NCBI GenBank assembly: GCA_038217285.1
Contig: JBBQPO010000028.1
Coordinates: 1 to 32,658 of the forward strand
DNA length: 32,658 nucleotides
From: Chthonomonadales bacterium
Lineage (GTDB): Bacteria > Armatimonadota > Chthonomonadetes > Chthonomonadales > Chthonomonadaceae
Direction of reading: 5' to 3'
A model generated the notes under the pieces. The model was not told where the DNA came from and did not search any database. It saw only the letters and a list, made by a program, of their open reading frames with translations. The first letter of the stretch is position 1, and each line of letters begins with the position of its first letter. Below, in pieces: positions 1,047 to 21,644 of this stretch. The position numbers and the translations under genes were made by a program.

Positions 1047-1088
1047 GATCGGTTGCATCCGAAAAATCTAAAACATACGGAACGAACT

Positions 1089-2270
1089 ATGTCCTCTTCC
1101 AACAGCGAAAATCGGCGTGTGGTGCTCATCAAGAGCCTGCACACGAACAACAGGTTCTACGCGCTCGTAGAACCGGATCGCGGTATACGCAATGCCGATG
1201 CGATTGAAAATATTCCGCCCGATCTTCTTCTCGGGATCGCCTATCCCTGTCTGGAAGACGGCCTGAACGATTTCGCTGTCATCCGCACCACATTCGAAAC
1301 CCTCGACCTCTTTCCCGACGACGATCCCATTCGCGAAGAGATGATGGAGATCGTCAACGATGCCCGTGGCAATCTGCTGCGTCGCCTGCACGAGCTTCAC
1401 GACAAGATCGCGTCGAGCCGCGCTCATTTTCTCGGCACCGACTACGATGAGTTCAAATCCTATGCGATGAACCTTGTTCACCGCGGCTATCCGCGTCGTA
1501 ACCTCGACAACATGATGAAGCTGAACGTGTTCAGTTCCGTCGCCGACGCGGAGGGGCACGACGCCAACAGCGACCTGAACTATTTTTTCGAGTTTCAATA
1601 CACCGATGGCGAGGCCCTTGCGGCGATTCCGGCCCGACAGTTCATCGTCGGGCTTTTCGCCGAAGTGATCCGCAGCGTCCAGGACGACACGAACTATACG
1701 GGCAAATACCCGTTCGATAAGAATGTGTTCCAGAAGTTCATCGCGGTCATGTTTGTCAACTACGCGACCACCAACCCGATGTTCTATGGGATCAACAAGG
1801 GCGATTACGGTGTCTCCAGCGACAAGAATATGGACGAGACCCCGCTCTACAAGGCGATCCGCAAAGAGCTGCTGGAGATCGAAGCGCTTCTCCAGGAAGA
1901 GGCCAACCCCTTTTCCGGCGCTCCGGTCGTCGCCACGCCCGACCAGACGATGGGAATGCCCGACTTTGCCAGTGCGACGCCCTTGCCGATCGGTGAGGTG
2001 CCCGATCCCCTGGCCGAGAGTACGACCTTGCATGGCCGCGTGTCGTTCGAGCAGGCCGGAGCAATGCTCCCCCACGAGCTGATCAACGAAGAGGTGCTGC
2101 TGGGCCCGATCACGTCGCTCTGCTCCGCCGCCCAACTGCTGATGCGCAAAAACGACCCGGAGACCCAGCGCTTCGCCCGCGTTATTCTGGCCGACGCCTC
2201 GAAACTGGTGGATGAGCTGAAACGGCTTGGAATCGTGTCGCCTCTGGCGAATGATCCCGGATCTTGTTGA
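1089..2270 (+). CDS. Hypothetical protein with degenerate HisKA/DHp-like C-terminal helices
   Basis: Long ORF with host-like GC-ending codons; ATG 1089 preferred over TTG 1053; C-terminal HELINEEVLLGPITSLCSAAQLL...DPETQRFARVILADASKL; followed by a terminator. Confidence 0.8.
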   Translation: MSSSNSENRRVVLIKSLHTNNRFYALVEPDRGIRNADAIENIPPDLLLGIAYPCLEDGLNDFAVIRTTFETLDLFPDDDPIREEMMEIVNDARGNLLRRLHELHDKIASSRAHFLGTDYDEFKSYAMNLVHRGYPRRNLDNMMKLNVFSSVADAEGHDANSDLNYFFEFQYTDGEALAAIPARQFIVGLFAEVIRSVQDDTNYTGKYPFDKNVFQKFIAVMFVNYATTNPMFYGINKGDYGVSSDKNMDETPLYKAIRKELLEIEALLQEEANPFSGAPVVATPDQTMGMPDFASATPLPIGEVPDPLAESTTLHGRVSFEQAGAMLPHELINEEVLLGPITSLCSAAQLLMRKNDPETQRFARVILADASKLVDELKRLGIVSPLANDPGSC

Positions 2271-2297
2271 TCTCGAAAATACGCAGGATGCGCACAG

Positions 2298-2326
2298 AGG
2301 GAAAAGTCACGTACTTTTCCCTTTTT
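2298..2326 (+). terminator. Rho-independent terminator
   Basis: Perfect 10-bp stem AGGGAAAAGT-cacgt-ACTTTTCCCT followed by a T run, 27 nt after the stop at 2270. Confidence 0.75.
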
Positions 2327-2373
2327 CATGTGGCGACCAGGGAAAGAGGCGCGGCAGGGCTTTGATGCAACGC

Positions 2374-2403
2374 TTGACAAAGCTTGCAGACAGAAGCTAA
2401 AAT
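2374..2403 (+). promoter_or_regulatory. Sigma70-type promoter candidate upstream of the hopanoid cluster
   Basis: TTGACA (2374-2379), 18-nt spacer, TAAAAT (2398-2403) in an intergenic region after a terminator. Confidence 0.6.
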
Positions 2404-2795
2404 AATCCATCTTCTCTCTGGCAATTGAGGCGATGGTGAGCCGCGCCACGACGCGTACAGGGCACTCATTCGATACGGCAGGACGCTGAAAGACGCGCTG
2501 CAGCAGACAATGGGATGTGCCGGTGCAGAGTGTGGCTCGTTTTTTACGTGGCGGATGCCGCCGCCTCGCCTACGCTGACCTGCCTGTCGATCCATGCTCC
2601 GGATCTCTGCCCGGCCGGTATCTACCATCAGACAGGCTCTCTCGGCATGACTGCACAAAATAGTTTTTCTCTGTGCAGCGGCGCATTGTTGTGTTTCCGG
2701 AACCAATCCCTGAACAACCAGGTTCGTGATAGTATGGAAAATCAGGACGGAGTTCGGAGACTCAACGGCCCGAAAACCCTTCGGACGGTGAATCG

Positions 2796-4865: not shown

Positions 4866-4907
4866 GGCGGCCCTGTAGTCGGGTATACTCTTCGCGTTGA
4901 TGACGAT

Positions 4908-6056
4908 TTGCGGAGGAGAGAGACGACGGACGACGCAAGCGTACCGCAGGGGCCGACCGGAACACTCGAAGACCTGACCAGGCGCGGTCAGGACAACAAT
5001 TTCGATAGCCTGCGCCTGTTCTGGGCCGTGCTGGTGTTGTTCTCGCACTGTTTCGCATTGCCGCAGGGCGGCAATGCGAATGAACCGCTGGCCGTACTGA
5101 CCAACGCGCAGACGACGTTCGGCAGCCTGGCGGTAGACGCCTTCTTTGTCATCAGCGGGTTTCTGATCGCGCAGAGCTGGCTTCGCAGTCAGGGGCAGGC
5201 CGACTATCTGCGCAAGCGTGTGCGGCGCATCTATCCGGGCTTTCTCGTCGCAGCCCTGTTTTGTGTAGGGATCGTGGGGCCTCTGGCCTCCGATTCGGTA
5301 ACGGTGTATCTGCGGGCGTTCCATCCGATGCTGTTGGTACGGTTCGTCTGGAGCGTTCTGACGTTGAGCCAGTTGGCGCTCCCGCCGGTTTTTATGCATC
5401 TGCCCTCTCACGGCGAGGTCAACGGCTCCCTCTGGACGATCCGCTACGAGTTCTGGTGTTACTTGCTCTTGGCCGCGCTCGGGGGGCTGGGACTACTGCG
5501 GCGGCGCGGAGCGGTGGCGGGCCTGTTTTTTGCTGTCCTGCTGCTCCATACGGCGCAGGAGTGGTTTTATCCGGGCATCGGGCAGGGCAACGATGCCTAC
5601 AAAGTGGGCCTGATGCACGGCCTGGAGCTTCCGCTGCTCGGTAACCTGGACCGTTGGCCGCGTCTGCTGGCCTTCTTTCTGGCCGGAACCGTCTGTTATC
5701 TCTACCGAGAGCGCCTTCCGCGTTCCCCGCGACTGGCGGTGGCGTCTGTGCTTCTGCTCGCGCTCTGCGTCCGCTGGGGCCTGAACGCAATGCTGCCGCT
5801 CTGCGGAACCTACCTGCTGCTCTACGCCGCCGGCAGCCCGATCCACTTTGGCAAAGCGCTCACGCAGCGCGCCGACCTGTCTTATGGCATCTATCTCTAT
5901 GCCTATCCTGTGCAGCAGTTACTGATCCAGTTCCTGGGGGTGCAGATCAACCCGTTCGTGCTGTTCGTCCTGGCGGTTCCGACCGTCGCCGCCCTGGCAT
6001 GGCTGAGTTGGAAGCTGGTGGAACAGCCGGTCCTGCACCGCAAGAAGCAGACCTGA
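4908..6056 (+). CDS. Acyltransferase family 3 (OafA/YrhL-like) membrane O-acyltransferase
   Basis: NNFDSLRL...SH, AVDAFFVISGFLI, RVRRIYP, NGSLWTIRYE, DLSYGIYLYAYP and SWKLVEQP motifs; many TM helices. Start codon uncertain. Confidence 0.92.
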   Translation: MRRRETTDDASVPQGPTGTLEDLTRRGQDNNFDSLRLFWAVLVLFSHCFALPQGGNANEPLAVLTNAQTTFGSLAVDAFFVISGFLIAQSWLRSQGQADYLRKRVRRIYPGFLVAALFCVGIVGPLASDSVTVYLRAFHPMLLVRFVWSVLTLSQLALPPVFMHLPSHGEVNGSLWTIRYEFWCYLLLAALGGLGLLRRRGAVAGLFFAVLLLHTAQEWFYPGIGQGNDAYKVGLMHGLELPLLGNLDRWPRLLAFFLAGTVCYLYRERLPRSPRLAVASVLLLALCVRWGLNAMLPLCGTYLLLYAAGSPIHFGKALTQRADLSYGIYLYAYPVQQLLIQFLGVQINPFVLFVLAVPTVAALAWLSWKLVEQPVLHRKKQT

Positions 6057-6115
6057 CGACCTATCCGGGCTACGGCCCTTTCGTTTGCAGTGACAGAGAA
6101 GGAGTTACTATCGCG

Positions 6116-7120
6116 ATGCGTTACCCTATCGGTTTCACGATGGCACAGGCCAAATATCGGCATAAAATGGAGCGAAGCGGGCAGAAACGGTATCCGGGCG
6201 TCGTCATGCTCGAACCGCTCTATACCTGCAACCTGGCCTGCCTCGGCTGTTCCATCGAGCGGCACACCGGCAAACTCAAGGACCGCATGTCGCTGGAAAC
6301 CTGCTTCAAAGCAGTGGAAGACTGCGGCGCGCCGATCGTAAACATCTGCGGGGGCGAGCCGACCCTCTATCCGGAACTGCCGCAACTGATCTCCGGCCTC
6401 ACCGATCGCGGCAAGTATATCATTCTCTGCACCAACGCCCTGAAACTGGAAGAGAAAATCCTGAATGTCATTCCGCCGAGCGACAACCTTTTCCTGATGA
6501 TCCACCTCGACGGAATGCGCGAGACTCACGACTATGTCTGCAACCGCAAAGGCGTTTTCGATCACGCGGTCGAAATGATTAAAAAGGCCCGCGACCTCGG
6601 TTTCCTCACCTTCATCAACACCACCGTCTTCAAGGAGACCTCTGTGGAAGAGGTCGAGGATATGTGCAAGCTCGTCAACGAACTGCGCGCCAATGGCATC
6701 CTGATCTCCCCCGGCTACGAGTACGAAAGCGTTCAGAGCGACGTATTCCTGTCGAAAGAGCAGATCCACGAGAAGTTCAAGGCCATTCGTGAGTTCGCGC
6801 CAAAGTACAAGGTCAACGCCACCCCGATGTTCTTGGAGTTCGCGGCCGGCATGCGCGAACTGCCCTGCGCCCCCTGGTCTACGGTCAACTACACGCCGAA
6901 GGGCTGGAAGGCTCCCTGTTACCTTGTCGAAGGAGAGGGCTACTACGACGATTGGCAGACCTTCTGGAACGATACCAACTGGGAGTACTGGGAATCGCGC
7001 CTCGATGCCCGCTGCCAGAACTGCAAGATGCACAGCGGCTTCGAGCATAGCGCCGTCGAAGAGTCCATGAAGACGGTCAAGGGCACCCTCCAACTCGCCG
7101 CCTGGACCTTATCGAAATAA
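6116..7120 (+). CDS. hpnH: Adenosyl-hopene transferase, radical SAM protein HpnH
   Basis: MLEPLYTCNLACLGC (CxxxCxxC), GGEP, and C-terminal RCQNCKMHSGFE. AAGGAG RBS precedes ATG 6116, so the 5654 start in the ORF track is an over-extension. Lies in the shc cluster. Confidence 0.92.
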   Translation: MRYPIGFTMAQAKYRHKMERSGQKRYPGVVMLEPLYTCNLACLGCSIERHTGKLKDRMSLETCFKAVEDCGAPIVNICGGEPTLYPELPQLISGLTDRGKYIILCTNALKLEEKILNVIPPSDNLFLMIHLDGMRETHDYVCNRKGVFDHAVEMIKKARDLGFLTFINTTVFKETSVEEVEDMCKLVNELRANGILISPGYEYESVQSDVFLSKEQIHEKFKAIREFAPKYKVNATPMFLEFAAGMRELPCAPWSTVNYTPKGWKAPCYLVEGEGYYDDWQTFWNDTNWEYWESRLDARCQNCKMHSGFEHSAVEESMKTVKGTLQLAAWTLSK

Positions 7121-7142
7121 CGACAAACGTCAGGAATCCGCT

Positions 7143-8153
7143 ATGGTCGCGCTCGTAACAGGCAGTACGGGATTTGTAGGCAGCCATGTCGCGCGACTGC
7201 TGGTGGAGCGGGGGGATCGGGCGCGCCTCCTCGTGCGCAAGAGCAGTCGGATGGACAATCTGGCGGCGCTGGATGCCCGACTGGCCGAACGATTTGTCGG
7301 GGATCTGTCCGATCCGGCCTCCCTGCGCGAAGCGGTGCGTGGCTGCGAGAGCCTCTACCATGTCGCGGCGGACTATCGGCTCTGGGCCAGAGATCCGCAG
7401 GAGCTCTATCGGGCCAATGTCGAAGGCAGTCGCCAGTTGATGGCGGCCGCGCGCGAAGAGGGTATGACGCGCATCGTCTACTGCAGCACGGTCGGCGCGC
7501 TCGGTATTCCGCACGATGGCTCCCCGGGCGATGAAGAGACGCCCGTGGCCGAATCCGACATGATCGGGCACTACAAACGCTCCAAGTTTCAGGCGGAGCG
7601 CGTCGTGCAGCAGTTCGCGCAGGACGGTCTGCCGGTCGTCATCGTCAACCCGAGTACACCGGTCGGGGAGCAGGATCTGAAGCCGACTCCGACAGGCCAG
7701 ATCATCGTCGATTTTCTGAATAGACGCCTTCCCGCCTACATCGATACCGGGCTGAATCTGGTGGATGTGCGCGATGTGGCGGCGGGAATGCTGCTGGCGG
7801 CGGAACATGGGGTTCCCGGCCAACGTTATATACTTGGGAACGAAAATTTAACCCTGAAACAGATGCTGGACCTTTTGGCCGAGATCACCGGCCTGTCCGC
7901 GCCGAAGGTGCAGATGCCTTATGGCGTGGCCTGGCTGGCGGTCGGGTTGGAAAATCTGGTGGTCAGCGGACTGCTGCACCGTCCTCCCGCGCACCCGTTC
8001 GAGGGCGTGAAGATGGCGCGGCATAAGATGTTTTTCGATCCGGCCAAAGCGGTGCGGGAACTGGGACTGCCGCAATCGCCTGTGCGCGCGGCGCTGGGCC
8101 GTGCGGTAGACTGGTTTCGAGCCAATGGTTATGTTGTCACCCGCGAACGGTAG
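7143..8153 (+). CDS. hpnA: Hopanoid-associated NAD-dependent epimerase/dehydratase HpnA
   Basis: VTGSTGFVG Rossmann motif, HVAADYRLW, YKRSK (YxxxK), PSTPVG.DLKPTPTG, DTGLNLVDV; cluster context. Confidence 0.92.
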   Translation: MVALVTGSTGFVGSHVARLLVERGDRARLLVRKSSRMDNLAALDARLAERFVGDLSDPASLREAVRGCESLYHVAADYRLWARDPQELYRANVEGSRQLMAAAREEGMTRIVYCSTVGALGIPHDGSPGDEETPVAESDMIGHYKRSKFQAERVVQQFAQDGLPVVIVNPSTPVGEQDLKPTPTGQIIVDFLNRRLPAYIDTGLNLVDVRDVAAGMLLAAEHGVPGQRYILGNENLTLKQMLDLLAEITGLSAPKVQMPYGVAWLAVGLENLVVSGLLHRPPAHPFEGVKMARHKMFFDPAKAVRELGLPQSPVRAALGRAVDWFRANGYVVTRER

Positions 8154-8198
8154 GTGGCGAGCGGGCGAAACGGCGGCGACGCCGGAGGAGAGATCAAT

Positions 8199-9098
8199 TT
8201 GGAACGCATATCCAAACGTAAAATAATTATGGCCAAAGAGGTCGGGTTCTGTTTCGGCGTCAAGCGCGCCATCAACCTGACCAAACAGGCCCTTAATGAG
8301 CGCGGTGATGTCTTTATTCTCGGCGATCTCGTGCATAACAAGCGTGTTACCGATGAGCTGGAGGGCAAGGGCCTGCGCAAAGTCGAGGACTATCAGGACC
8401 AGAAAGGCACCATGGTCATCCGCGCCCACGGTCTGCCGAAGGCCAAGATTCAAGAGGCGAAGGACCAGGGCCTGGAGGTCGTAGACGCGACCTGCCCCAT
8501 CGTACTGCGGGCGCAGGAGGCGGCGCAGACGCTGGAGCGCGACGGGTATCAGGTGGTCATCATCGGGGATCGCAACCATGCCGAGATCAAAGGTATCCTG
8601 GGCGCGCTGGAGCAGCCGGCACTGGTCGTCGATAACATCGAGGAACTGCACGAGGCGAAGGCGAACTATACGCTGATGCGCAAAGTCGGCGTCATCTTCC
8701 AGACGACGCATGCGCTGGAGCTCTGCAATCAGATCGTCAACGAGATGCTGATGATGTGCAAAGAGATCCGCATCATCAACACCATCTGCCGTCCGGTGCA
8801 GAATCGTCAGGACGATGCGGTCGAGCTGGCCTCCAAGGTGCAGTTGATGGTCGTGGTCGGCTCACGGACCAGTGCGAATACCGTGGAACTCGCCGCCCTC
8901 TGCCGCAACTACAACAAGAACACGGTGCAGGTTCAGAACGCCGACGAGTTGGACTACAGTATCTTCCGTGACTGCGATATCGTCGGACTGGCCTCGGGGC
9001 TTTCGACGCCGGAAGATCTGGTAGAAGCGGTGCGCCAGAAAATTCTGTTCTATGACGCCGAGCCAGTCGCCGCTGAACCCGCGCTGGCAACGGCATAA
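8199..9098 (+). CDS. ispH: 4-hydroxy-3-methylbut-2-enyl diphosphate reductase
   Basis: GFCFGVKRA, LVHN, IRAHG, DATCP, HAE, QTT, NTIC, SANT and SGLSTP; three Fe-S cysteines present. GGAGGAG RBS 8 nt before TTG 8199 (ATG 8229 is an alternative). Confidence 0.95.
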   Translation: MERISKRKIIMAKEVGFCFGVKRAINLTKQALNERGDVFILGDLVHNKRVTDELEGKGLRKVEDYQDQKGTMVIRAHGLPKAKIQEAKDQGLEVVDATCPIVLRAQEAAQTLERDGYQVVIIGDRNHAEIKGILGALEQPALVVDNIEELHEAKANYTLMRKVGVIFQTTHALELCNQIVNEMLMMCKEIRIINTICRPVQNRQDDAVELASKVQLMVVVGSRTSANTVELAALCRNYNKNTVQVQNADELDYSIFRDCDIVGLASGLSTPEDLVEAVRQKILFYDAEPVAAEPALATA

Positions 9099-9112
9099 GG
9101 ACGCCTGCCGCC

Positions 9113-9829
9113 ATGTCTGGCGCAGTCTCTCGGTTCTCGCGCACCTACGTGTTGTTTGCGCTGCCGGAAGAGGCTGCGCCGTTTTTGCGTCGTATGGCGG
9201 TCGTTCCGGCCTTACGCCACCGGTGTGAGGTCCAGGTTTCCGGGGTCGGAGCGGAGAAGGCGGCCCGAGAGACGACGCAGATACTGGCGGAGGGCGGGGT
9301 AAAGTGTCTGATCGTCTGCGGCTTCGGCGGTGGGTTGACCGAACAGATAACACCGGGATGTCTGATCGTCGCAGAGCGTGTCCTCGACGCCACGGGGGAG
9401 GCCTCCGCATCGCCAACCGTTTATCGACCGGATAGAGCGATGCGAGAGTTGGCGGACGGGCGCTGCGGCGATCTGGTGACGGTAGGGAACGTGCTGACGA
9501 CCCCGGCCGAGAAGCGCGCCCTGCATGTCCAGACAGAGGCCGACATGGTGGACATGGAGACAGTGGGCGCAGTGGCGGTAGCGGAGCAGGCGGGGGTGCC
9601 CTGGCTCGCCGTGCGGGCCGCCACAGACTCCGTAGACGCAGACCTCCCCTTCGATTTCAACACGCTGACCGATGCCGAAGGCAATGTAGACCGCCGACGG
9701 GTCATCGGGGCCACGCTGGCGCAGCCCTGGAAAATACCGGCGTTGATTCGGCTTGGCAGTCACTCCGCCCTGGCCGCCAAAAACCTTGCGCGTTTCCTCG
9801 AAACCTATCTGCAACGGTTGCCGGACTGA
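9113..9829 (+). CDS. hpnG: Nucleoside phosphorylase/MTAN-fold protein, HpnG-like hopanoid-associated phosphorylase
   Basis: FALPEEA, SGVG, GFGGGL, VDMET, VRAATD of the PNP/UDP_1 family; located with shc and hpnH. Confidence 0.75.
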   Translation: MSGAVSRFSRTYVLFALPEEAAPFLRRMAVVPALRHRCEVQVSGVGAEKAARETTQILAEGGVKCLIVCGFGGGLTEQITPGCLIVAERVLDATGEASASPTVYRPDRAMRELADGRCGDLVTVGNVLTTPAEKRALHVQTEADMVDMETVGAVAVAEQAGVPWLAVRAATDSVDADLPFDFNTLTDAEGNVDRRRVIGATLAQPWKIPALIRLGSHSALAAKNLARFLETYLQRLPD

Positions 9830-9832
9830 ACT

Positions 9833-11125
9833 ATGCACCAGAAACCAGAACGTCCTATCATTTTTATCTGCCTGCTGGTACTGTTCTCGCGTTCGGGAGG
9901 AGCGCAGGAGCTGACGTTGGCGGGGAGCGTGGCGTCGGCGTTGCGGCAGAGTCCGCAGGTGCGCCTCGCGAAAGCCGTGCGGGAGGCGGCCCTGGTGGAA
10001 GCCGAGCGCGGCAAACCGGTGGCGCGGCCCACCGTAGAGGCGCGTGCTGCCGGGACTTTGCAGGGGCCACGTGCGACTTTTCCACGCCCGGACGGCTCGC
10101 CTGCGACCGTTCTACCGGAGGAGGTAGGGCGGCTCGACCTGATCGTGGAGCAGCCTGTCTACCGTGCCGGTCAGCGCGCCGCCCGGGATCGGTACGGGGC
10201 CGCACAGGGCGAAGCGGAGTGGGAGTATCGGCGGGCGCTCTCGGCGGTGGCGCTGGCGGCCCGAAAGGCCTATATCGATGTGTTAAGGGCTGATGCTGGC
10301 GTCCGCGTAGCGCAGGACGGTCTGGAGGCGGCACAGCGGTATCAGGAGCTGGTGGCGCGGCAGATCGCGGCAGGGCTCGCGAAGCCGGTCGATGCCGGCA
10401 CGGCGGCGGGGCAGGCGGCAGAGGCACAGGGCGGCGTGACGCAGGCGACGAGCGCGCTCAAGCTGGCACGCATGAGTTTCAATCGCGTGTTAGGACGCGC
10501 GCTGACTGTCGAAGTTGTGCTGGAGCCTCTGCCGCCGGACCCGGCGAAAGCGCCGGATAGCCCGGAGGCGGCGATTGCGGCGGCCTGGCAGCATCGCCCG
10601 GAACTGCGCCTGCTGGAAGAGAACCTGCGGGGCGCACAAGCGGGCATCTCTCTGGCGAAGGCGCAGACACAGCCAGCGCTAAATCTGCGCGGCCAGATCA
10701 GCGAACAGACGCCGAGTGCCTTTGTACGTGAACACTATGCCGCTGCGACTCTGGAACTGCGCTGGTCCCTTCTGGACGGCGGCAAGGCGCGCCTGGACAC
10801 TCAGGAAGCCAGGGCACAAGCGAGCCGGATAGGGGCGCTGCGCGAGGATGCACGACAGGGCATCGCGCTCGAAGTGACGCAGTTCTGGCAGCAGAGGCGG
10901 GACGCGCAGGAGAAGATCGGCCTCACCCGTACGCAGCGGGAAGGTCTGGAGGCGACGGTGGCGGTGGCGGAGAAGGCCTACGAGGTGGGACGCGGGACGG
11001 CTATCGAGGTGCAGGCCGCGCAGCGGGAAGTACGCAGCGCCCGTGCCCGCGAGGTGCAGGCTCTCTACGACCTGCATGCCTCCTCCGCAGATTTCGCACA
11101 CGCGCAGGGTGAGGACGTGCCATGA
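9833..11125 (+). CDS. TolC-family outer-membrane efflux protein
   Basis: Signal peptide; LTLAGSVASAL..SP start; duplicated helical/beta repeats; HRPEL; AEKAYEVG; followed by an MFP. Confidence 0.9.
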   Translation: MHQKPERPIIFICLLVLFSRSGGAQELTLAGSVASALRQSPQVRLAKAVREAALVEAERGKPVARPTVEARAAGTLQGPRATFPRPDGSPATVLPEEVGRLDLIVEQPVYRAGQRAARDRYGAAQGEAEWEYRRALSAVALAARKAYIDVLRADAGVRVAQDGLEAAQRYQELVARQIAAGLAKPVDAGTAAGQAAEAQGGVTQATSALKLARMSFNRVLGRALTVEVVLEPLPPDPAKAPDSPEAAIAAAWQHRPELRLLEENLRGAQAGISLAKAQTQPALNLRGQISEQTPSAFVREHYAAATLELRWSLLDGGKARLDTQEARAQASRIGALREDARQGIALEVTQFWQQRRDAQEKIGLTRTQREGLEATVAVAEKAYEVGRGTAIEVQAAQREVRSARAREVQALYDLHASSADFAHAQGEDVP

Positions 11126-12408
11126 CCGGCGGGCAAGCGCGACTTCTGGGCGGCGCGGCGGTTCTCGTCGTCGTCGGTGCAGCGGCGTGGATGCTGCGTC
11201 CTCATGAGTCGCCCTCTCTGCCGCCCCCAGGCGTGGGCGCCTCGCCACAGCCACCGACCAAGATCCATACGAACGCCGCCTCGGAGCTGGTGCCTGCTGC
11301 GCCTGCCACTCTGTCGCTGCTCGGCAGTGTGCAGTCCGAGGCGCAGAGCACACTTTCGGTGCGGATGCCGGGACGGATCGTGGCCGTTGGCGCGCGGGAA
11401 GGGGATACGGTTCACGCCGGACAGGTGCTCGTCTCCCTCGACGATACCGATGTGCGCCGGCAGATACAGCAGGCGGAAGCGGGCGTATTGGCGGCTCAGG
11501 CGCAGATAGATCGGGCTGAAAAAGGAGTCGCTGCGCAGCAGGGCAAAGCCGACGGCGAGGTGCTGACGGCGCACTCTGCCCTGGAAACCGCGCAGGGACA
11601 TCAAAAGCAGGCGGCGGCAGGCGTGGAGACGGCGCGGAGCGAACAGCAGGCGGATGTGAAACTGGCCCAGGACGGCGTCAACAAGGCGGAACAGGCGCTG
11701 GCTCAGGCCCATCAGACCCTGGCCTCCCTGGAAGAACTGAACAAGATCGGCGGCGTGGCGCGCAACGATCTGGACGGAGCACGGCGGCAGGTGAAGGTCG
11801 CCGAATCGGACCTTGCCACCGCGAATACACAGTTGCGGCGCGCGAACGCCACCGACGCGACGACCGGAACGCCGGTGCGTGTGGCGGCGGTGCAACGCGA
11901 TCTCGTGGCAGCGCGGCAGGGCGTTCACGCCGCCAAAGCGGGATTAGCGCTCGCGGAGCAGGGCCGTAAACAGGCGCTGGCCGTGGCGGCCAGCGAGGTC
12001 GGCGCGGTGAAGGCGGCACTGGTGCAGGCGCAGGCCGGCATGGCTACCGCTCAGGCCGGAGAGGCGCAGACTCGGCTTGCAAGCCCCATCGAGGGGGTTG
12101 TCAGCGCCGTGATGGCGCATGTCGGCGACACAGCCCAGCCCGGTATGCCCCTGCTCACGGTCGTATCGCTCTCCGGGCTGCGAGTCGATGCCCTGGTTCC
12201 GGCCCGTCAACTGAGTCTGCTCCACCTTGGACAACAGGCCCATGTCGCCGTAGACACCGATCCGTCCCGCACCTATCCCGCCGCCGTCAGCGAGATCGCC
12301 CGAATCGCGGAGCCGGACGGGCGCACGTTCCATGTGCGCTTCCACCTTTCCTCCCGGAGCGCTCTGCGGCCCGGTCAGACCGCCCGCATTACCTTAGGGA
12401 CGCGTTGA
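11122..12408 (+). CDS. RND efflux periplasmic adaptor (HlyD/MFP family) with a long coiled coil
   Basis: N-terminal TM anchor; lipoyl half-motifs REGDTVHAGQVLVSLD and LASPIEGVV..GDTAQPG; LRPGQTARI; ATGA overlap with the TolC gene. Confidence 0.9.
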   Translation: MTGGQARLLGGAAVLVVVGAAAWMLRPHESPSLPPPGVGASPQPPTKIHTNAASELVPAAPATLSLLGSVQSEAQSTLSVRMPGRIVAVGAREGDTVHAGQVLVSLDDTDVRRQIQQAEAGVLAAQAQIDRAEKGVAAQQGKADGEVLTAHSALETAQGHQKQAAAGVETARSEQQADVKLAQDGVNKAEQALAQAHQTLASLEELNKIGGVARNDLDGARRQVKVAESDLATANTQLRRANATDATTGTPVRVAAVQRDLVAARQGVHAAKAGLALAEQGRKQALAVAASEVGAVKAALVQAQAGMATAQAGEAQTRLASPIEGVVSAVMAHVGDTAQPGMPLLTVVSLSGLRVDALVPARQLSLLHLGQQAHVAVDTDPSRTYPAAVSEIARIAEPDGRTFHVRFHLSSRSALRPGQTARITLGTR

Positions 12409-12428
12409 CGTTCTTCTGACTTGTCGGA

Positions 12429-12456
12429 TTGCCTCTTTCACTTCTCTTGGTATAGC
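12429..12456 (+). promoter_or_regulatory. Promoter candidate for the cassette
   Basis: TTGCCT (12429-12434), 16 nt, then TATAGC (12451-12456) with a TGn extended -10. Confidence 0.4.
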
Positions 12457-12538
12457 CTTAGAGGAGATAGGTAAGCGCTCAGAGAAACACTCCAACAGAA
12501 ATGATTAGTAAGGCTGATGTAGGTAGGATGAGAATCGT

Positions 12539-13114
12539 ATGGATGAGAAAATTCTTGACTTGAGCGCCCAGCTACAGACCTGCAAAACTGAACATGAACA
12601 ACAGGTATTTGAAATTGAGCGGCTGAAGGCAGAGATCGCAGTAATCAAACCTCAACTCGATGCTCTTCTCTCCTCCAACGGAGACGGAGGTAAACTTCAT
12701 GCAGATTACAGGCAACTGAAGGCAGTATTTCATACACATCTCAAGTGGGCTGGATCACGTAAAGAACCGTCCAGTTATCTTCTCTTATTCTATGCGGTCG
12801 AATGCGGCTTGAAATACGTCTACTTGCGCAGAAACCGGATGGCATCCACTCAACAACTTGCAGAAAGCGGCTTGCTGTCGGGTAATGGTCATGATCTGAT
12901 GAAATGGTGTAAGGATCTAAAAATGCCTGCATCACTTGCAGGCGTAACTGTGCACTTTCGTCTGCTGAGCAACACTTCAAAGCAATATAACATAGGTAAG
13001 GCCCATGAAGCGTGGCGCTATGGGGTTCCTATCGAAAAAAGTACCCAGGATACCATCGTGGAGTGGCTCACCGCCGTATCTGATTGGATAAAACTACAGC
13101 CGGAGGCTAAATAA
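12539..13114 (+). CDS. HEPN-like protein with an N-terminal coiled coil
   Basis: LLLFYAVECGLK ... GHDL ... WRYG, matching the HEPN (PF05168-like) pattern AVEKALK/HDL/RY; heptad-like first ~45 aa. Confidence 0.6.
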   Translation: MDEKILDLSAQLQTCKTEHEQQVFEIERLKAEIAVIKPQLDALLSSNGDGGKLHADYRQLKAVFHTHLKWAGSRKEPSSYLLLFYAVECGLKYVYLRRNRMASTQQLAESGLLSGNGHDLMKWCKDLKMPASLAGVTVHFRLLSNTSKQYNIGKAHEAWRYGVPIEKSTQDTIVEWLTAVSDWIKLQPEAK

Positions 13115-13115
13115 G

Positions 13116-15884
13116 TTGCTTTCACCTGATATTCGCCTTTATACATGGATAGACGTGGAAGAAGCTTTATCTCAAACAATCGAGAAGGAAGCTCCCCCTT
13201 CATGGCTGGTTGGAGCGAGTGCGTATTGGGAAGGGCTAACAATAAGTGTTAAGCCGAATTCTGGTTCGCTCCCTCTGGAATGGCTCAACGAGGTATTTGC
13301 GCCACGTTTTGCTCCCGAAAATGCCATTGGCAACTCTGATCCAGCCATCGTTTTAGAGAGCACGGATGGTGCCTCGCGACTGTTACGTGTGTTCGTAGAA
13401 GAAGTTGATGGGGCAACCACGTCTACCCAGTTCATACCTAGCTTCCAAAGACAATCTGAAATAGTGCTAAAGTCTCCCATCCGGTTTCCCGCTCGGCTTT
13501 TGGACTCTCCGCCTGTCATAACTTTTCATTCCTTCAAAGGCGGCGTTGGTCGCACAGCACACGCAATCGCTTTGGCACAAGCCATGGTCAAAAATGGAAA
13601 GAACGTGCTCCTCATAGATGGCGATCTGGAAGCACCAGGTATTAGCTGGTTGCTTCATAGCAGGTTGAAAGACCCACCGGTGTCATTCGCCGATTTCCTG
13701 GCATTGATACATGGTGATACCGATCTGGACTATTCGGGTTCAATTTCATTAGTTTATGACCGTCTGCTCAATGCGGAACTTAATGGTATATATGTTATGC
13801 CTGCATTCCGCACAATTGAGCGGTATGTATCCTTGGAAATTCGTCCAGAACATATCTTGCAGGGATCTAAAGATCCATTTGTTTTGACAAGCCTTTTGTC
13901 AAGACTAGGCAAAAAACTCGGTGTGAGTGCTGTCATTATAGACCTGCGTGCAGGCTTTTCAGAGCTATCTGCGGGGTTGCTGCTTGACCCGCGTAACTAT
14001 CGCATATTAGTCACTACGTTGGGCGGACAATCCATCGCTGGCACTGAGCAGGTCTTGTCACTCTTGGGTCGAACCGAAAAAGCGGCCAAGCAGGCAGATT
14101 CTCAGGAGGAATATCCGCGACCCATCGTTATTTTCAACATGGTTCCGCCTGACCAAGAAAACGGTCGCCTCATCGATTGTCAACAAAAAATTCAAGAAGC
14201 AGCTTCTGCTTTTCTGGACGATAATATTCTGGGCCTTCCCACCGTTACCTCGCAGTTCGACTCCAGCTTGCTCGGCATTCCGCTGGAATGGGAAGATGTC
14301 GTTAATCGTCTCGAGAAGGCAGGCATTGTTGAAACGGCGCAAGAAGTACTTGATCTGTTACCGTGGCCGGAAACCTCCACGTCTTCGATACCTCCCTCAG
14401 TTGTTACTGCCGATGATACATTGACGCGAAGACAAAAGCTGGATGAATTCACGACTAAGCTAGTCGTGGCTGAAACTGGTACAGAGAACGACTTACTGAT
14501 CACATCTTCGCTACAAAATCTCGCGTCTGACAATCGTCGTCAAGTTCCTACTGTCATAGTGGTTGGGGCCAAGGGAGCGGGTAAGACCTATACGTTTATT
14601 CAACTCGTTCGGCTAAAAACGTGGAACGCTTTCGTCCGCAAAGCAGGAAAACCAAGTGCCCATTTGATACGTATTACTGTTCCTCGCTCCGCACTTGAGA
14701 ACAAATCCGAACAACCAGAGACCAGTCACCTAGATGCTGCCTTCGATGCCGTGGTCTTCCCTGTTCTCGCGTCGAGAAATTTAGGGGTGTCAGCTAGCCA
14801 ATTAGTCAAGGAGGGACAAGACGCTGCGCTGTCCAGTCTCGGTTTTGCCACCGCCATGTCCGCGCCTGAAATACACGATGTAATTCGTGAGAGGCTTGGC
14901 CTCAGTCTTCACGAAGGGAATTGGAGACAGATATGGTTGGATATAATCGCTTGGAGTATTGGTTTTCATGTCAAAGAAGAAGGAGCGGGGCTGGGACTGG
15001 CAAAGCACCTACAAGAAACAGGCAAAAAGGTAGTGTGCGTATTTGACGGCCTCGAGGACCTGTTCCCGAACTTTTCCGTTGCGTCGTCACCAGAACAGGT
15101 GGCTCTAAGAGCTCTACTTCAGGAAGTTCCTGACTGGTTGAACCAACAGCCAGGCAAGCCTGTAGGGATAGTGGTGTTCGTCCGTCGGGACATGGTTGCT
15201 ACCACCATAAAACAGAACGTGGCGCAGTTTCTCGCTCGTTATGATGCATACGCGCTTAAGTGGAGTCGAGAAGAAGCACTGCGTCTTGTCGCGTGGACTG
15301 CGGTTAAAGCAGAAGCATTACCTGATGATTCTGTATCTACCGATCTACAAAAGATGGAAGAACCAGAGTTAATAGTGAAGCTTTATCCACTATGGGGGAA
15401 AAAGCTAGGTCGTGAGAACTCGCGGGAAGGGCGTTCTGCTGAGTGGGTGATTGCTGCCTTATCCGATTATAAGGGGCAGATTCAGGCAAGAGACTTAGTA
15501 CGTCTGTTAAGTTTAGCCTCGCGTAAATCCTTAATCGACCAGCAATGGACAGACCGGTTGCTGACACCCAATGCGATTAGAGATTCACTCAATGAATGTA
15601 GTAAGCAGAAGATAGAGGAAATAGAGGCCGAAAATACTCCCCTTAAAACGATATTCGGCAAAATGCGAAAACATAGCGTAGAAAGGCAGATTCCGTTTCG
15701 ACAAGAGGAGATGGAGCTTACGGGCGAGGACATTAAAGCACTCGAAGATAACGGAATACTTCTTCGCGACGTTGACGTTTATTATATGCCTGAGATATTT
15801 CGACGAGGCCTTGATTTTGACCTTAAATCCGGAGTCAGGTCGCGTGTGCTTAGTATGGCCTATAGAGCTACCCGCAGAAAATAG
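13116..15884 (+). CDS. Multidomain NTPase: KGGVGR-variant ParA/MinD domain fused to a second P-loop ATPase (Sll1717-like)
   Basis: VITFHSFKGGVGRT (K at 13536), LLIDGDLEAPG and IIDLRAG in domain 1; VVGAKGAGKT (14565-14588), VCVFDGLED and VFVRRD in domain 2. TTG start 1 nt after the HEPN-like stop. Confidence 0.85.
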   Translation: MLSPDIRLYTWIDVEEALSQTIEKEAPPSWLVGASAYWEGLTISVKPNSGSLPLEWLNEVFAPRFAPENAIGNSDPAIVLESTDGASRLLRVFVEEVDGATTSTQFIPSFQRQSEIVLKSPIRFPARLLDSPPVITFHSFKGGVGRTAHAIALAQAMVKNGKNVLLIDGDLEAPGISWLLHSRLKDPPVSFADFLALIHGDTDLDYSGSISLVYDRLLNAELNGIYVMPAFRTIERYVSLEIRPEHILQGSKDPFVLTSLLSRLGKKLGVSAVIIDLRAGFSELSAGLLLDPRNYRILVTTLGGQSIAGTEQVLSLLGRTEKAAKQADSQEEYPRPIVIFNMVPPDQENGRLIDCQQKIQEAASAFLDDNILGLPTVTSQFDSSLLGIPLEWEDVVNRLEKAGIVETAQEVLDLLPWPETSTSSIPPSVVTADDTLTRRQKLDEFTTKLVVAETGTENDLLITSSLQNLASDNRRQVPTVIVVGAKGAGKTYTFIQLVRLKTWNAFVRKAGKPSAHLIRITVPRSALENKSEQPETSHLDAAFDAVVFPVLASRNLGVSASQLVKEGQDAALSSLGFATAMSAPEIHDVIRERLGLSLHEGNWRQIWLDIIAWSIGFHVKEEGAGLGLAKHLQETGKKVVCVFDGLEDLFPNFSVASSPEQVALRALLQEVPDWLNQQPGKPVGIVVFVRRDMVATTIKQNVAQFLARYDAYALKWSREEALRLVAWTAVKAEALPDDSVSTDLQKMEEPELIVKLYPLWGKKLGRENSREGRSAEWVIAALSDYKGQIQARDLVRLLSLASRKSLIDQQWTDRLLTPNAIRDSLNECSKQKIEEIEAENTPLKTIFGKMRKHSVERQIPFRQEEMELTGEDIKALEDNGILLRDVDVYYMPEIFRRGLDFDLKSGVRSRVLSMAYRATRRK

Positions 15885-15949
15885 TTTGGAGTAATCATAA
15901 ATGGCAGTCATGCGTCGATGGTCGTGACGTCCTCAGGGCGACTATAGTA

Positions 15950-18900
15950 ATGTGGTTCACGCGTCTGGCGATCTCTCGACCCGTCCTCATCTGGATGGCC
16001 CTGGCCGCAATCGCGGTGCTGGGCCTGCGGGCTTACACACGCCTGCCTGCCGAGCTAAACCCCAAGGTCGATATTCCTACCCTGACGGTGACGACCATCT
16101 ATCCCGGCGCGGAACCACCCGAGATCGAGACGCAACTCAGCAAGCCGCTGGAGGATGCCGTCGGAACCGTGCCGGGCGTTCGGAACGTCTACTCCAGTTC
16201 GCAGAGCGGCGTCTCGATCATCAGTATGGACTTCCGGGTCGGAACCGATCTGGACGTGGCGGCGGCGGAGGTGCGGGGGCGCGTGGAGGCGGTGCGCGCG
16301 CAGTTGCCGCCGGAAGCCCGCCCGCCCGTGGTGGCGAAGCTCGACATCAACGCCCTGCCCATTCTCTATCTCGGGCTGGAGTGTCCCTCGCTTACGCTTC
16401 AGCAGTTGCGCGCGCTGGCGGACAACACCCTGCGTCCGCGTCTGGAGCGGGTTTCGGGTGTGGCGACGGTACGCGTGATCGGCGGAGAACAGCGCGAGAT
16501 CCATGTCGCGATAGATGCCCACAGACTGGCGCCGCTGGGGTTGACCATCGCCGACGTCGTGAACTCGATCAAGGCAGGCGGACACGATGTGCCCGGTGGC
16601 GACATCACCCAGGCCCGTAACCAGACCGGGGTGCGGCTGGCCGCCGCCTTCGGCTCCCTCGACTCCATCGCCAATACGCCGCTGATCGCCTCGCAACTGG
16701 CGGCACATGCGGCCGGCACGAGGCCCGGCTCCGATCTGCCTGCGCCGCCGCTGACGGTGGCGGATGTGGCCGACCTCTCCGACGGCAACGCGGAGCGCTC
16801 GGAGATCAATCGCATCGATGGCCATCCCGGTATCAGTCTGGTTCTGACGAAAGCCTCCGACGCCAACACTGTCGCCGTCGTGGAGGAGGCGAACCAGGCG
16901 CTGGAACAGTTGCAGCCCTCCCTTCCCGCCGATCTACGCCGCATCGTCCTGCGTGACGACTCTGTGACCGTGCGCGACGCCCTCCAGGATGTCAACGGCA
17001 GCCTGCTGCTCGGGGCCGTGCTCGCGATGGTCGTGATCCTGTTCTTTCTCCACAACCTGCGCGGCACCCTCATTGTCTCCCTCGCCATTCCCGCCTGTAT
17101 CGTCGCCACCTTTCTGGTGATGTCCGTGGCAGGGTTCACGCTGAACCAGATGACGCTGCTGGCCCTCTCGCTCTCGGTCGGAATTCTTGTAGACGACTCG
17201 ATCGTCGTGCTGGAGAGCATCACGCGGCATCTGAAAAACGGGGAGACACCTCGCGAGGCCGCGTTCAACGGGCGCACCGAGATCGGCTTCGCCGACCTGA
17301 CGACGACTCTGGTCGATGTCGTGGTGTTCGTTCCGATCGCGTTCATGGGCGGTATCGTCGGCGGATTTTTCAAGCAGTTCGGCCTGGTCATCGTCACCGC
17401 CACGCTCTTCTCGCTCGTCGTCTCGTTCTCGCTGACGCCGATGCTGGCCTCCCGCTGGTATCGGGCAGGAGAGGATACGGAGGCGAAACACGGCTTCTTC
17501 GCGCCCTTCGAGCGCTTCTACCAGTGGCTGGAGGCGAACTACCGGCATGTGATCACCTGGGCGCTGCGCCACCGGGGGACGGTAGTGCTGGCCGGTGTGG
17601 CAGGGCTGGCGCTGATCTTCGTCGTCTCCTTCGCCCGGCTCGGCTTCGAGTTCCTGCCGGGAACCGACCAGGGGCAGATCACGGTCGCGCTGGAGATGCC
17701 GCCGGGAACCAGTCTGACCGCGACCGACGCTGTGGCGCGGGAGATGGAACAACTCGTTTTGAAGACGCCCGAGGTGCAGGCAGTCGTGACCAACGTCGGG
17801 CAGATCCTCGGCGGGTTCGGCTCCATTCCCCAGCAGGGCGCGCAGCTCGCGCAGTGCAATGTACGGCTGAACGAGAAGCGCGCGCTGCTCGATCCGATCC
17901 TGCATCCCGGCGGGCTGCCGAACACTCGCCTTCATACCGATATCGAGATCGGGAACGTGCTGCGCCGGACGCTGCTGCCGCTGGCGAGCCGGTCCGGAGG
18001 CCGGATCATCGTCAATCCGGTCAGAACGGTCGAGGGTATCTCGGCGCCGATCGAGATCAATTTGCGCGGCGCGGACATCGACCGCCTCACGCAGTTCGCG
18101 GCGCAGGTGCAGCAGCGGCTCGACACGGTGCCCGGTGTGATCGATCCTACGGTTTCGGCGCAGAGCGGCAAGCCGGAGGTGAGCGTCACGGTAGACCCGC
18201 GCCGCGCGGCCCAGTTCGGCATCCCGACCGGGCAGGCGGGTGAGATTTTGCGCGACTCCCTGGCAGGCAACTCCGACGCCGTCTTCCGGCAGAACGGACA
18301 GGAGTTCCCGATTCGTATTCGGCTTCAGGGCGTTCAGCGGGATGCGCCCGGCGATGTCCAGAACATCGTAGTCGGCGCGGATGCCCAGGGCCAGCCGGTG
18401 ACCCTGGCCGACATCGCGGATATTCGCCTGCATACCGGCCCCGCCAGTATCGAGCGCGAGAATGGGCAGAGGCTGGTGTCGGTAAAGGCGAACCTCTCAC
18501 CGGAAGTTCCGCTCGGCAATGCCCAGCAGACGATCAACGTCCTGCTGAAGGGGATGCCCCACGCGGACATCGACGTCAAGTGGGGCGGCGAGGCGGAGAC
18601 CATGAATGAGAACGCGCCCCTGATGGCGGAGTCCTTGATTCTGGCCGTGGTGCTCGTCTACATCGTCATGGCCTCGCTCTTCAACAGCCTGGGAACGCCC
18701 TTCGTCATCATGTTCACGCTGCCGATGGCGCTGGTCGGCGCGCTCGGCGCGCTGGTTCTGCTGGGCGAAACGATGTCGCTGGTCGCCGCCATCGGTATCG
18801 TCATGCTCGTCGGACTGATGGGCCGCAATGCGATCCTGCTGCTGGACTATACGAACACCCTGCGCGCCCGGGGAGCGACCCGTAACGCCGCCCTTCTGGA

Positions 18901-19159
18901 AGCAGGCGCGACCCGTCTGCGGCCCATCCTGATGACGACTACGGCCACAATTGTCGGCATGCTGCCGGTCGCGCTCCGCATCGGTCGTGCCTCGGAGATC
19001 CGCGCTCCGATGGCGATCGTGGTGATCGGCGGCCTGCTTGTCTCGACGGCGCTGACCCTGATCGTCATTCCGGTCCTCTACACGCTCCTCGACGATGCCC
19101 AGAACCGCTGGAAGTCCCGTCGCGCGTCCCAAAACCCGACAAAAACAGACTCGGACTGA
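15950..19159 (+). CDS. RND efflux permease, AcrB/AcrD/AcrF family
   Basis: 1069 aa; AISRPV, YPGAEP.EIE, GILVDDSIVVLE, TRLRPILMTT, PMAIVVIGGL; RND two-repeat topology. Confidence 0.96.
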   Translation: MWFTRLAISRPVLIWMALAAIAVLGLRAYTRLPAELNPKVDIPTLTVTTIYPGAEPPEIETQLSKPLEDAVGTVPGVRNVYSSSQSGVSIISMDFRVGTDLDVAAAEVRGRVEAVRAQLPPEARPPVVAKLDINALPILYLGLECPSLTLQQLRALADNTLRPRLERVSGVATVRVIGGEQREIHVAIDAHRLAPLGLTIADVVNSIKAGGHDVPGGDITQARNQTGVRLAAAFGSLDSIANTPLIASQLAAHAAGTRPGSDLPAPPLTVADVADLSDGNAERSEINRIDGHPGISLVLTKASDANTVAVVEEANQALEQLQPSLPADLRRIVLRDDSVTVRDALQDVNGSLLLGAVLAMVVILFFLHNLRGTLIVSLAIPACIVATFLVMSVAGFTLNQMTLLALSLSVGILVDDSIVVLESITRHLKNGETPREAAFNGRTEIGFADLTTTLVDVVVFVPIAFMGGIVGGFFKQFGLVIVTATLFSLVVSFSLTPMLASRWYRAGEDTEAKHGFFAPFERFYQWLEANYRHVITWALRHRGTVVLAGVAGLALIFVVSFARLGFEFLPGTDQGQITVALEMPPGTSLTATDAVAREMEQLVLKTPEVQAVVTNVGQILGGFGSIPQQGAQLAQCNVRLNEKRALLDPILHPGGLPNTRLHTDIEIGNVLRRTLLPLASRSGGRIIVNPVRTVEGISAPIEINLRGADIDRLTQFAAQVQQRLDTVPGVIDPTVSAQSGKPEVSVTVDPRRAAQFGIPTGQAGEILRDSLAGNSDAVFRQNGQEFPIRIRLQGVQRDAPGDVQNIVVGADAQGQPVTLADIADIRLHTGPASIERENGQRLVSVKANLSPEVPLGNAQQTINVLLKGMPHADIDVKWGGEAETMNENAPLMAESLILAVVLVYIVMASLFNSLGTPFVIMFTLPMALVGALGALVLLGETMSLVAAIGIVMLVGLMGRNAILLLDYTNTLRARGATRNAALLEAGATRLRPILMTTTATIVGMLPVALRIGRASEIRAPMAIVVIGGLLVSTALTLIVIPVLYTLLDDAQNRWKSRRASQNPTKTDSD

Positions 19160-20747: not shown

Positions 20748-21644
20748 ATGCTCACGCGACTGATCAGCGGCCTGATCGGAATAGGGGTGTTTCTGGGCTG
20801 CTGCTTCGGAGGGCTTCTGCCGTTCACCGTGGCCGTGCTGATCGTCACCGCGCTGGGCATTTCCGAGTTTGTGGGCGCGTATGAGCATGCGCCCGTCGCG
20901 GAACCTTTGCCGGGACGAATGGAGTGGGTACGCGAGCGCTTCCGCCGCTGGAACCCGATCCTGGCCTGGGCCGGTCTGGCCATGCCCCTCCTCGCCTATC
21001 TGTTCAGCACCCGTTCCTCCCCGCTCCTGGATTCCTACGCGCTTACGCTCGGAGCCGTGGTGCTGTTGTTTACGGCGCTGGTGGTACGGGCGCTTCGCAC
21101 CGGCAGCGCGCTCGGCAAATGGCAGGTGGCTTACGGCCTCGTCGGCTTTCTCTATATCGGCGGGCTGTTGGAGATCTTCGTGCTGCTGCGCGCCGTTCCG
21201 GGCGTTATTGTGGTGGCAGGTATCGGGGGGGAGGGGGAGCGAGGCGCGTGGCTAATGCTGTTTGTGGCTGTGTGCGTCTGGGCCACCGACACGTTCGCCT
21301 ATTTTGTAGGCCGCTGGTGCGGGCGTCACAAGCTCGCGCCGCAGCTCTCACCGGGGAAGACGGTGGAGGGCTCCATCGGGGGGTTGGTCGGGGCGATTCT
21401 GGTCGGGGCCGCGTTCGGCCACTGGATTCATCTGCCTCTGGTTCACGGTATCGCGGTCGGGGCGCTGGCAGGCGTGATGGGGCAGCTTGGGGATCTGTTC
21501 GAGTCGGCTCTGAAGCGCGAACTGGGCATCAAGGATTTCGGGCGCTTCCTGCCCGGTCATGGCGGCGCGCTCGACCGTTTCGACAGTCTGCTCTTCGTCG
21601 CGCCGCTCGCCTATCTCTACCTGCACTTCGTGGCCGGCATCTAA
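20748..21644 (+). CDS. cdsA: Phosphatidate cytidylyltransferase
   Basis: VWATDTFAYFVG, KLAPQLSPGKTVEG, GDLFESALKR..IKDFG..LPGHGGALDRFDS; GAGGAGG RBS before ATG 20748. Confidence 0.95.
   Translation: MLTRLISGLIGIGVFLGCCFGGLLPFTVAVLIVTALGISEFVGAYEHAPVAEPLPGRMEWVRERFRRWNPILAWAGLAMPLLAYLFSTRSSPLLDSYALTLGAVVLLFTALVVRALRTGSALGKWQVAYGLVGFLYIGGLLEIFVLLRAVPGVIVVAGIGGEGERGAWLMLFVAVCVWATDTFAYFVGRWCGRHKLAPQLSPGKTVEGSIGGLVGAILVGAAFGHWIHLPLVHGIAVGALAGVMGQLGDLFESALKRELGIKDFGRFLPGHGGALDRFDSLLFVAPLAYLYLHFVAGI

Follow-up and report, generated by a model that had tools for sequence, protein, structure and literature searches.

A HEPN-fold protein and its three-module NTPase partner inserted in an efflux operon: a fused new member of a known candidate system

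Two candidate kinds and one established class of paired genes stand closest to the locus described here. The 145 PDC systems, all of them untested candidates, were drawn from genes that lie within BREX, DISARM and type I restriction-modification systems, according to the available part of the source (Payne et al., bioRxiv 10.1101/2024.01.29.577857). The HINPO system is named in a computational preprint dated 22 Oct 2026 (Li, Burroughs and Aravind, bioRxiv 10.64898/2026.10.19.760177), which in its available text describes an upstream uncharacterised HEPN gene, a ConB2-clade ParA, and an ORC-CDC6/STAND-like NTPase that is encoded downstream or, 'in several cases', fused. ParA proteins of this clade are said there to carry an Arg in place of the Walker A Lys and a PG motif behind sensor-1 and to begin with an inactive Pol-beta nucleotidyltransferase that evolves rapidly, and enrichment in multicellular bacteria is given among the HINPO traits. 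The third is the HEPN-MNT (type VII) toxin-antitoxin (TA) class, represented by SO_3166/SO_3165 (PDB 5yep) and by 7ae2. Here we report on a two-gene cassette in a 32,658-nucleotide stretch of a Chthonomonadales bacterium (GenBank assembly GCA_038217285.1, contig JBBQPO010000028.1, positions 1 to 32,658), called the window below. Gene 1 (12539..13114, 191 aa, ATG start) and gene 2 (13116..15884, 922 aa, TTG start) are open reading frames (ORFs) of the + strand, on which the parts of the insert and of the flanking efflux operon given below also lie, and a single base separates the stop of the first from the start of the second (TAA-g-TTG). A previous reading of the letters alone (the sequence-only reading) had correctly described two tightly coupled genes 1 nt apart and had proposed them as an undescribed defence system. 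That novelty was not borne out: with matches to two PADLOC models of PDC-M28 and an architecture of the HINPO kind as far as the preprint text describes it, the pair is already catalogued as a candidate kind, and this copy is a fused, coiled-coil-bearing new member of a known candidate system.

The PDC-M28 models were taken from PADLOC-DB v2.0.0. Gene 2 matched PDC-M28B over residues 131-370 (2e-19) and PDC-M28C over residues 629-855 (1.5e-12), and some homologues of the pair stand beside DISARM-like genes, which resembles the embedding by which the PDC candidates are stated to have been found. The locus differs from PDC-M28 in that the B and C proteins are fused and in that gene 1 of the window gave no match to the PDC-M28A model at E<=1; a weak match to it was found for 7 of 35 relatives of gene 1 (best E 0.0032). 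The architecture also matches HINPO in the terms of the available preprint text. The upstream HEPN-fold gene, the conserved neighbourhood and the fused ORC/STAND-like NTPase were all found here, and gene 2 has the Arg Walker A, the PG motif and a predicted inactive N-terminal Pol-beta nucleotidyltransferase, which makes it ConB2 by motifs; gene 1 is a candidate member of the PA-HEPN1 family of the preprint. Two differences from HINPO were seen. Three genes are the norm in the preprint as available, whereas most loci with relatives of gene 1 are of the fused two-gene form, and in this copy and its closest relatives the HEPN protein is extended at its N-terminus by a coiled coil of ~50 residues. 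With HEPN-MNT pairs the locus shares a small HEPN protein beside a Pol-beta-type nucleotidyltransferase fold. In contrast to those pairs, the nucleotidyltransferase here is without the conserved GSx(n)DxD residues and heads a 922-aa double NTPase, and the HEPN protein is without Rx4-6H. In a full-text search 'HINPO' occurred in this sense in one preprint (10.64898/2026.10.19.760177), and KGGVGR, PDC-M28 and Sll1717 were named in no paper text searched. The system type is common and spans many phyla, and two independent computational routes have pointed to it; the copy in the window is a compact, intact two-gene version and is convenient to clone.

Modules of gene 2 and fold of gene 1

Gene 2 consists of three modules, not two. 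The two different NTPase domains that the sequence-only reading had assigned to it were both confirmed, and a third, N-terminal module (residues 7-100, 13134..13415) had been missed. The first NTPase is a ParA/MinD-like ATPase (residues 132-370, 13509..14225). Residues 132-316 scored 158.2 bits with NCBIfam NF047398 (KGGVGR-motif variant AAA ATPase), for which the cut-off is 90, and gene 2 is the sole copy above this cut-off in its own genome. The module also matched Pfam CbiA and AAA_31, and in PHROGs gene 2 matched a ParA-like partition protein and nothing else. Its Walker A motif reads KGGVGRT at residue 141, with Arg for the canonical Lys, and DGDLEAPG is found at residue 168; among the homologues of gene 2, KGGxGR[ST] was present in 72 of 77 and DxD..PG in all full-length proteins (60/60).

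The second NTPase (residues 474-841, 14535..15638) carries a Walker A motif, GAKGAGKT, at residue 484 and a Walker B motif, FDGLED. Its score with NF047389 (P-loop ATPase, Sll1717 family) was 65.6 bits, below the cut-off of 75, so that of the two NCBIfam families only NF047398 was matched above its cut-off, and neither family name implies a function. When 60 homologues were compared with Pfam, this module gave weak matches to AAA_22 (43 homologues), NACHT (39, best 8.6e-7), AAA_16 (35), nSTAND1 (26) and ORC-CDC6-like (3). A sequence-profile search of PDB chains with the C-terminal NTPase family returned nothing useful (best, a designed TPR, E 0.0046). By its motifs and profile matches, the C-terminal module is classed as a putative STAND/ORC-like P-loop NTPase, of either the ORC/CDC6 or the STAND kind.

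The N-terminus of gene 2 (residues 1-128, aligned with 68 homologues) gave an AlphaFold2 model with a pLDDT of 85.6 and an alpha-beta core at residues 11-96. In a comparison of this domain with PDB chains by VIA-align, 32 of the top 50 rows, judged from their entry titles, were Pol-beta-superfamily nucleotidyltransferases; the best was CdnC (Z 6.1), with SAS2 (5.8), SAS1 (5.6) and URT1 (5.1) next, and later rows were CD-NTases, OAS2, MenT, CapRel, Pol beta and cGAS. The only residues invariant among 69 sequences are M1, D13 and P108, with no conserved G[GS] or DxD pair, and therefore the catalytic carboxylates are not conserved. The model and the alignment together place this domain as a probable catalytically inactive Pol-beta-like nucleotidyltransferase ('iNTase'). 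Proteins of the gene 2 kind are numerous: protein-atlas clusters of 880-925 aa bear the NF047398 and NF047389 names, with up to 671 members in a gene 2-like cluster.

Gene 1 likewise belongs to a large family. A word-indexed search found 97 relatives, most of them ~135 aa long and matching residues 53-187, and three relatives with 57-63% identity have the full length of 191-192 aa. When 1.84 billion cluster representatives (50% identity) were searched with a profile of the family, 785 were found at E<=0.001, of which 596 were at E<=1e-10. Because genes 1 and 2 both have many homologues, they are not chance ORFs. In an alignment of 35 sequences, 21-62% identical to the query, the residues Y85, A86, E88, G90, K92, H118, W159, R160, Y161 and G162 are invariant and H156 is near-invariant; the motif xExWRYG was found in 210 of 230 family proteins. 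The motifs FYAVECGLK, GHDL and WRY, which the sequence-only reading had picked out as HEPN-like, are present and are conserved in the family by this alignment.

The AlphaFold2 model of gene 1 (mean pLDDT 91.8) starts at the N-terminus with a long helix or coiled coil (residues 3-46, nt 12545-12676) and then forms a core of helices and a small hairpin, in which the HEPN-fold part is residues 54-191 (nt 12698-13111). When the model was compared with 48,161 PDB representative chains by VIA-align, the top five matches, over residues 53-191, were all HEPN proteins: 1ufb (Z 10.1, rmsd 3.2, 109 residues aligned), 2hsb and 1wol (both 9.4), the sacsin HEPN domain (9.2) and 4nqf (8.9), values to be read with the caveat that Z below ~13 for helical bundles may reflect an unspecific or common arrangement. 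The next matches were the AbiA HEPN domain, HEPN-MNT toxins (5yep and 7ae2, Z 6.6-7.2) and Csm6, all of them spanning residues ~54-191. The consistency of this list supports the HEPN fold that had been proposed for gene 1 from its motifs. PHROGs gave no significant match to gene 1, Pfam searched with the 35 relatives gave no HEPN family, with scattered matches at E>0.007, and a sequence-profile search of PDB chains with the gene 1 family gave nothing meaningful (4 rows, best E 0.54).

HEPN RNases are defined by the motif Rx4-6H. In gene 1 the helix where they carry it reads KAHEAWRYG, giving H156-x3-R160 with His before Arg. The conserved polar set E88/K92/H118/H156-x3-R160/Y161 suggests that the protein may nonetheless be an enzyme. 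A HEPN protein without the defining RNase motif and with another invariant polar set could mean that HEPN chemistry is more plastic than assumed; the points of remaining interest in the system are this non-canonical active site and what the dead nucleotidyltransferase does. A subset of the gene 1 family (P0002-P0004, P0102, P0127, P0142, P0175, P0190, P0200) has N-terminal extensions of 50-170 residues, and Pfam found no domain in these extensions in eight longer family members, P0002-P0004 not among them.

Conserved pairing and horizontal acquisition

The pairing of the two genes was surveyed with one genome per species. A scan with the gene 1 alignment gave 176 encoded relatives, and 80 loci were kept, in which pairing was assessed by tblastn with parts of gene 2 and by frame analysis. 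The ParA part lies directly downstream of the gene 1 homologue in 77 of the 80 loci, and the remaining three have just 8, 151 and 378 nt of downstream sequence. The pair is thus co-located in 77 of 77 informative loci and forms a conserved module. Judged from their record titles, the loci come from cyanobacteria, acidobacteria, proteobacteria, Bacillota, Chloroflexota, Bacteroidota, actinomycetes and other groups, and many of them are from filamentous cyanobacteria. The start of gene 2 overlaps the stop of gene 1 by 4 nt in 45 of the 77 loci.

The ParA part and the second NTPase share one frame in 65 of the 80 loci, and the full-length fused proteins are 784-952 aa long with a median of 913 (63 measured). 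The two parts lie in separate frames in five loci (L002, L015, L044, L056, L066), some of which are clearly disrupted; the second NTPase is missing from five complete ORFs (L003, L008, L077, L078, L006), and contig ends truncate two further loci. In L003, L008, L077 and L078 (~7350-8780 in each) the HEPN gene is accompanied by a nucleotidyltransferase-ParA protein of 413-474 aa with no STAND-like module. The genes downstream of these short forms are unrelated (GCS2, SpoU and RsmE-type methylases, Uma2, a caspase fragment), and the short-form protein of L078 has a weak FitA-like ribbon-helix-helix match at its end. In L006 (7398-9923, Poribacteria) the STAND-like C-terminus of the gene 2 homologue appears, by eye, to have been swapped in frame for aminotransferase-like sequence. 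An apparent triple HEPN-ParA-STAND fusion in L022 (7025-10114, a 1029-aa ORF) was rejected as a frameshift artefact or pseudogene, its HEAWRYG segment being out of frame.

In the window, the pair stands out from its surroundings by composition. GC is 0.45-0.50 over 12501-16000 versus 0.62-0.71 in the flanks, in agreement with the AT-rich insert noted in the sequence-only reading, and GC at third codon positions (GC3) is 0.46 for gene 1 and 0.45 for gene 2, against 0.68-0.84 for most neighbouring ORFs; the gene pair is compositionally foreign. It separates two genes of a resistance-nodulation-division (RND) efflux operon, namely that of the HlyD-type membrane-fusion protein (11122-12408, Pfam HlyD_D23 3.2e-21), which follows the outer-membrane factor gene (9833-11125, Pfam OEP 1.7e-37), and that of the AcrB-type RND pump (15950..19159, Pfam ACR_tran 4.7e-243). 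The insert comprises a left intergenic region (12409..12538), the two genes, and a right intergenic region (15885..15949) that extends to the start codon of the pump gene.

The same site was then compared in relatives. Twenty relatives were searched with the membrane-fusion protein, which gave 8 loci, and the proteins of the window were aligned to these. In three genomes of the same genus (G001, G002, G004) the insert is absent and the pump gene starts 60-78 nt past the fusion-protein gene. In a fourth (G003) a gene 1 homologue occupies the same site, after the fusion-protein gene, and the contig ends inside the homologue; the insert is therefore present in 2 of the 5 genus members examined. 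Two more distant loci (L087, L088) also have the insert-free site. Because same-genus genomes have the fusion and pump genes adjoining without the insert, the pair is a foreign insertion of ~3.5 kb into the RND operon, and it was horizontally acquired. A repeat search found no target-site duplication and no terminal inverted repeats at the ends of the insert. The insertion within an efflux operon shows that such cassettes land outside defence islands too.

The left intergenic region holds a 40-nt non-coding block (12450-12489) that is nearly identical in the G003 copy (L082 410-444, - strand), the remaining spacer having diverged, and that was found in none of the other 86 loci. This block may serve as a promoter, as an operator or as part of a leader. 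The promoter candidate that the sequence-only reading had assigned to the insert was not reproduced, as a scan for the sigma-70 consensus gave no hit on the + strand ahead of gene 1. In the G003 copy of gene 1, an apparent frameshift relative to the metagenomic protein P0003 falls in an A-run (L082 ~170-200, - strand); it could be an assembly error or mark a pseudogene.

Neighbouring genes were taken as the two nearest ORFs on each side of the 49 loci with full flanks (194 ORFs), of which 102, from 26 loci, were scanned with PADLOC at E<=1e-5. At least one match was found among the four nearest ORFs in 10 of the 26 loci. In L023, L027 and L042 (~100-11000) the cassette directly follows genes for a DrmD/DpdE-like helicase and a DrmMI-like methylase; an HNH nuclease gene comes after the cassette in L023 and L027, and in L027 so does a HEC-05/GmrSD-like gene. 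The other matches were mad3 (L044, L024), PDC-S03 (L001), a PbeA-like helicase (L004) and a type II restriction enzyme (L033), and the matches beside L011 and L018 were weak only. Taken without a background rate, these 10 of 26 loci are only suggestive of a defence association: defence neighbours were found at these ten loci and not at the other sixteen.

A proposed NTPase-gated effector and its rivals

The reading that we favour, and consider fairly probable, is that of a horizontally acquired cassette of the HINPO/PDC-M28 kind, lodged in the RND operon and working as an NTPase-gated HEPN effector system. The NTPase-gated mechanism and the defence activity are what we infer from the architecture, folds, motifs, conserved pairing and insertion described above. 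The large gene 2 protein would be both sensor and switch. Its STAND/ORC-like NTPase, which has Walker A and B intact and is thus the likely hydrolysing sensor, would recognise an invader cue and then oligomerise. K-to-R mutants of partition ATPases show nucleotide-dependent dimerisation with slow turnover, and the ParA-like domain with its Arg Walker A could act as a slow nucleotide-dependent dimerisation switch of this sort. The HEPN protein, made in a fixed ratio through translational coupling, would serve as the effector; once released or activated, it would cut RNA via the rewired E/K/H/H-x3-R/Y active site, so that the infected cell is arrested. The dead nucleotidyltransferase domain would have a nucleotide or the HEPN protein as its binding partner. 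Binding of the HEPN protein is proposed because the closest structural neighbours of gene 1 partner minimal nucleotidyltransferases, and nucleotide binding is proposed in the available text of Li et al. (10.64898/2026.10.19.760177). A complex prediction for the HEPN core (50-191) and the nucleotidyltransferase (1-105) scored 0.00 in both runs and counts neither way.

Several observations weigh against this reading. In the portions of the literature drawn on here, as in the present work, the family is known from computational work alone. The window is no defence island, because the neighbours of the pair are hopanoid and efflux genes, and 16 of the 26 scanned loci of relatives are without a defence neighbour. 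Gene 1 has no significant match in PADLOC, Pfam or NCBIfam, and a Foldseek search of the PDB with its model returned the same HEPN families weakly (E 0.3). The nucleotidyltransferase assignment in gene 2 depends on modest Z values (<= 6.1), and Foldseek against the PDB gave weak, mixed rows for this domain (complex I 30-kDa subunit, PolX, Pol lambda). Because the canonical Rx4-6H is absent from the expected (penultimate) helix of gene 1, RNase activity is not assured; an incidental R-x4-6-H occurs nearby in 71 of the 210 WRYG-bearing family proteins and is not conserved. Finally, in the text available, Li et al. favour a main effector role for ParA multimers, behind which HEPN is only a backup (10.64898/2026.10.19.760177).

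The logic set out by Li, Burroughs and Aravind leads to a different division of labour, which we regard as unlikely for this locus. The STAND/ORC-like module would sense invader DNA, ParA multimers would coat or trap the invader, and the HEPN protein would be a backup suicide effector or a non-catalytic RNA-binding sensor. The model is stated in the available text of the preprint (10.64898/2026.10.19.760177). It agrees with the loss of the canonical Rx4-6H from gene 1 and with the four short-form loci (L003, L008, L077, L078), which keep the HEPN and iNTase-ParA proteins without STAND and so point to a ParA-centred core. Yet gene 1 is kept at every locus, though by construction of the search, and its six invariant or near-invariant polar residues suggest an enzyme rather than a passive binder. 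The change of the Walker A Lys to Arg also argues, from studies of ParA mutants, against the fast turnover of ATP.

We put forward a possible origin for the cassette tentatively and with low confidence. The HEPN gene and the dead nucleotidyltransferase head of gene 2 may be a captured HEPN-MNT TA pair; its antitoxin would have lost catalysis to become a tether that keeps the toxin under two NTPase switches, and the active site of its toxin would have been rebuilt from Rx4-6H to E88/K92/H118/H156-x3-R160/Y161. Neither the capture nor the rebuilt site is stated in the available text of the preprint (10.64898/2026.10.19.760177). If true, this origin would reveal a previously unrecognised catalytic HEPN variant and a route from a TA pair to a sensor-gated immune system.

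That the locus still functions as such a pair is distinctly unlikely in our assessment. In a TA or addiction module derived from HEPN-MNT, the dead nucleotidyltransferase would sequester the HEPN toxin, and the module would mainly stabilise itself or mobile DNA rather than protect the cell from phage. The best structural neighbours of gene 1 do partner minimal nucleotidyltransferases (1ufb, 1wol, 2hsb, 5yep, 7ae2, 8xdj, 1jog), the next encoded domain has a Pol-beta-type nucleotidyltransferase fold, and the genes are translationally coupled. However, an antitoxin of 922 aa with two NTPase modules far exceeds what a neutraliser needs, no integrase or transposase adjoins the pair in the window or in L003, L008, L022, L077 and L078, and descent from HEPN-MNT is our own inference, stated by no source. 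A role as a host accessory of the RND efflux or hopanoid locus, for example in regulating or assembling the pump, would fit the shared strand, the operon position between the fusion and pump genes and the adjoining hopanoid cluster, but it is effectively refuted by the absence of the pair from the site in three of the four same-genus relatives searched, its foreign composition and the unrelated neighbours of the 80 related loci.

Other features of the window

A hopanoid-type cluster lies directly upstream of the RND operon (2796-9829), with genes for a squalene-hopene cyclase, a radical-SAM/DUF3463 protein, an NAD-dependent epimerase, LytB/IspH and a PNP_UDP-family nucleosidase. No Rfam family reached its gathering score anywhere in the window. 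Strong negative AT skew (-0.33 to -0.40) was seen at 5001-6000 and at 21001-21500, and the former stretch is overlapped by a 127-aa ORF that has no Pfam match and a GC3 of 0.42.

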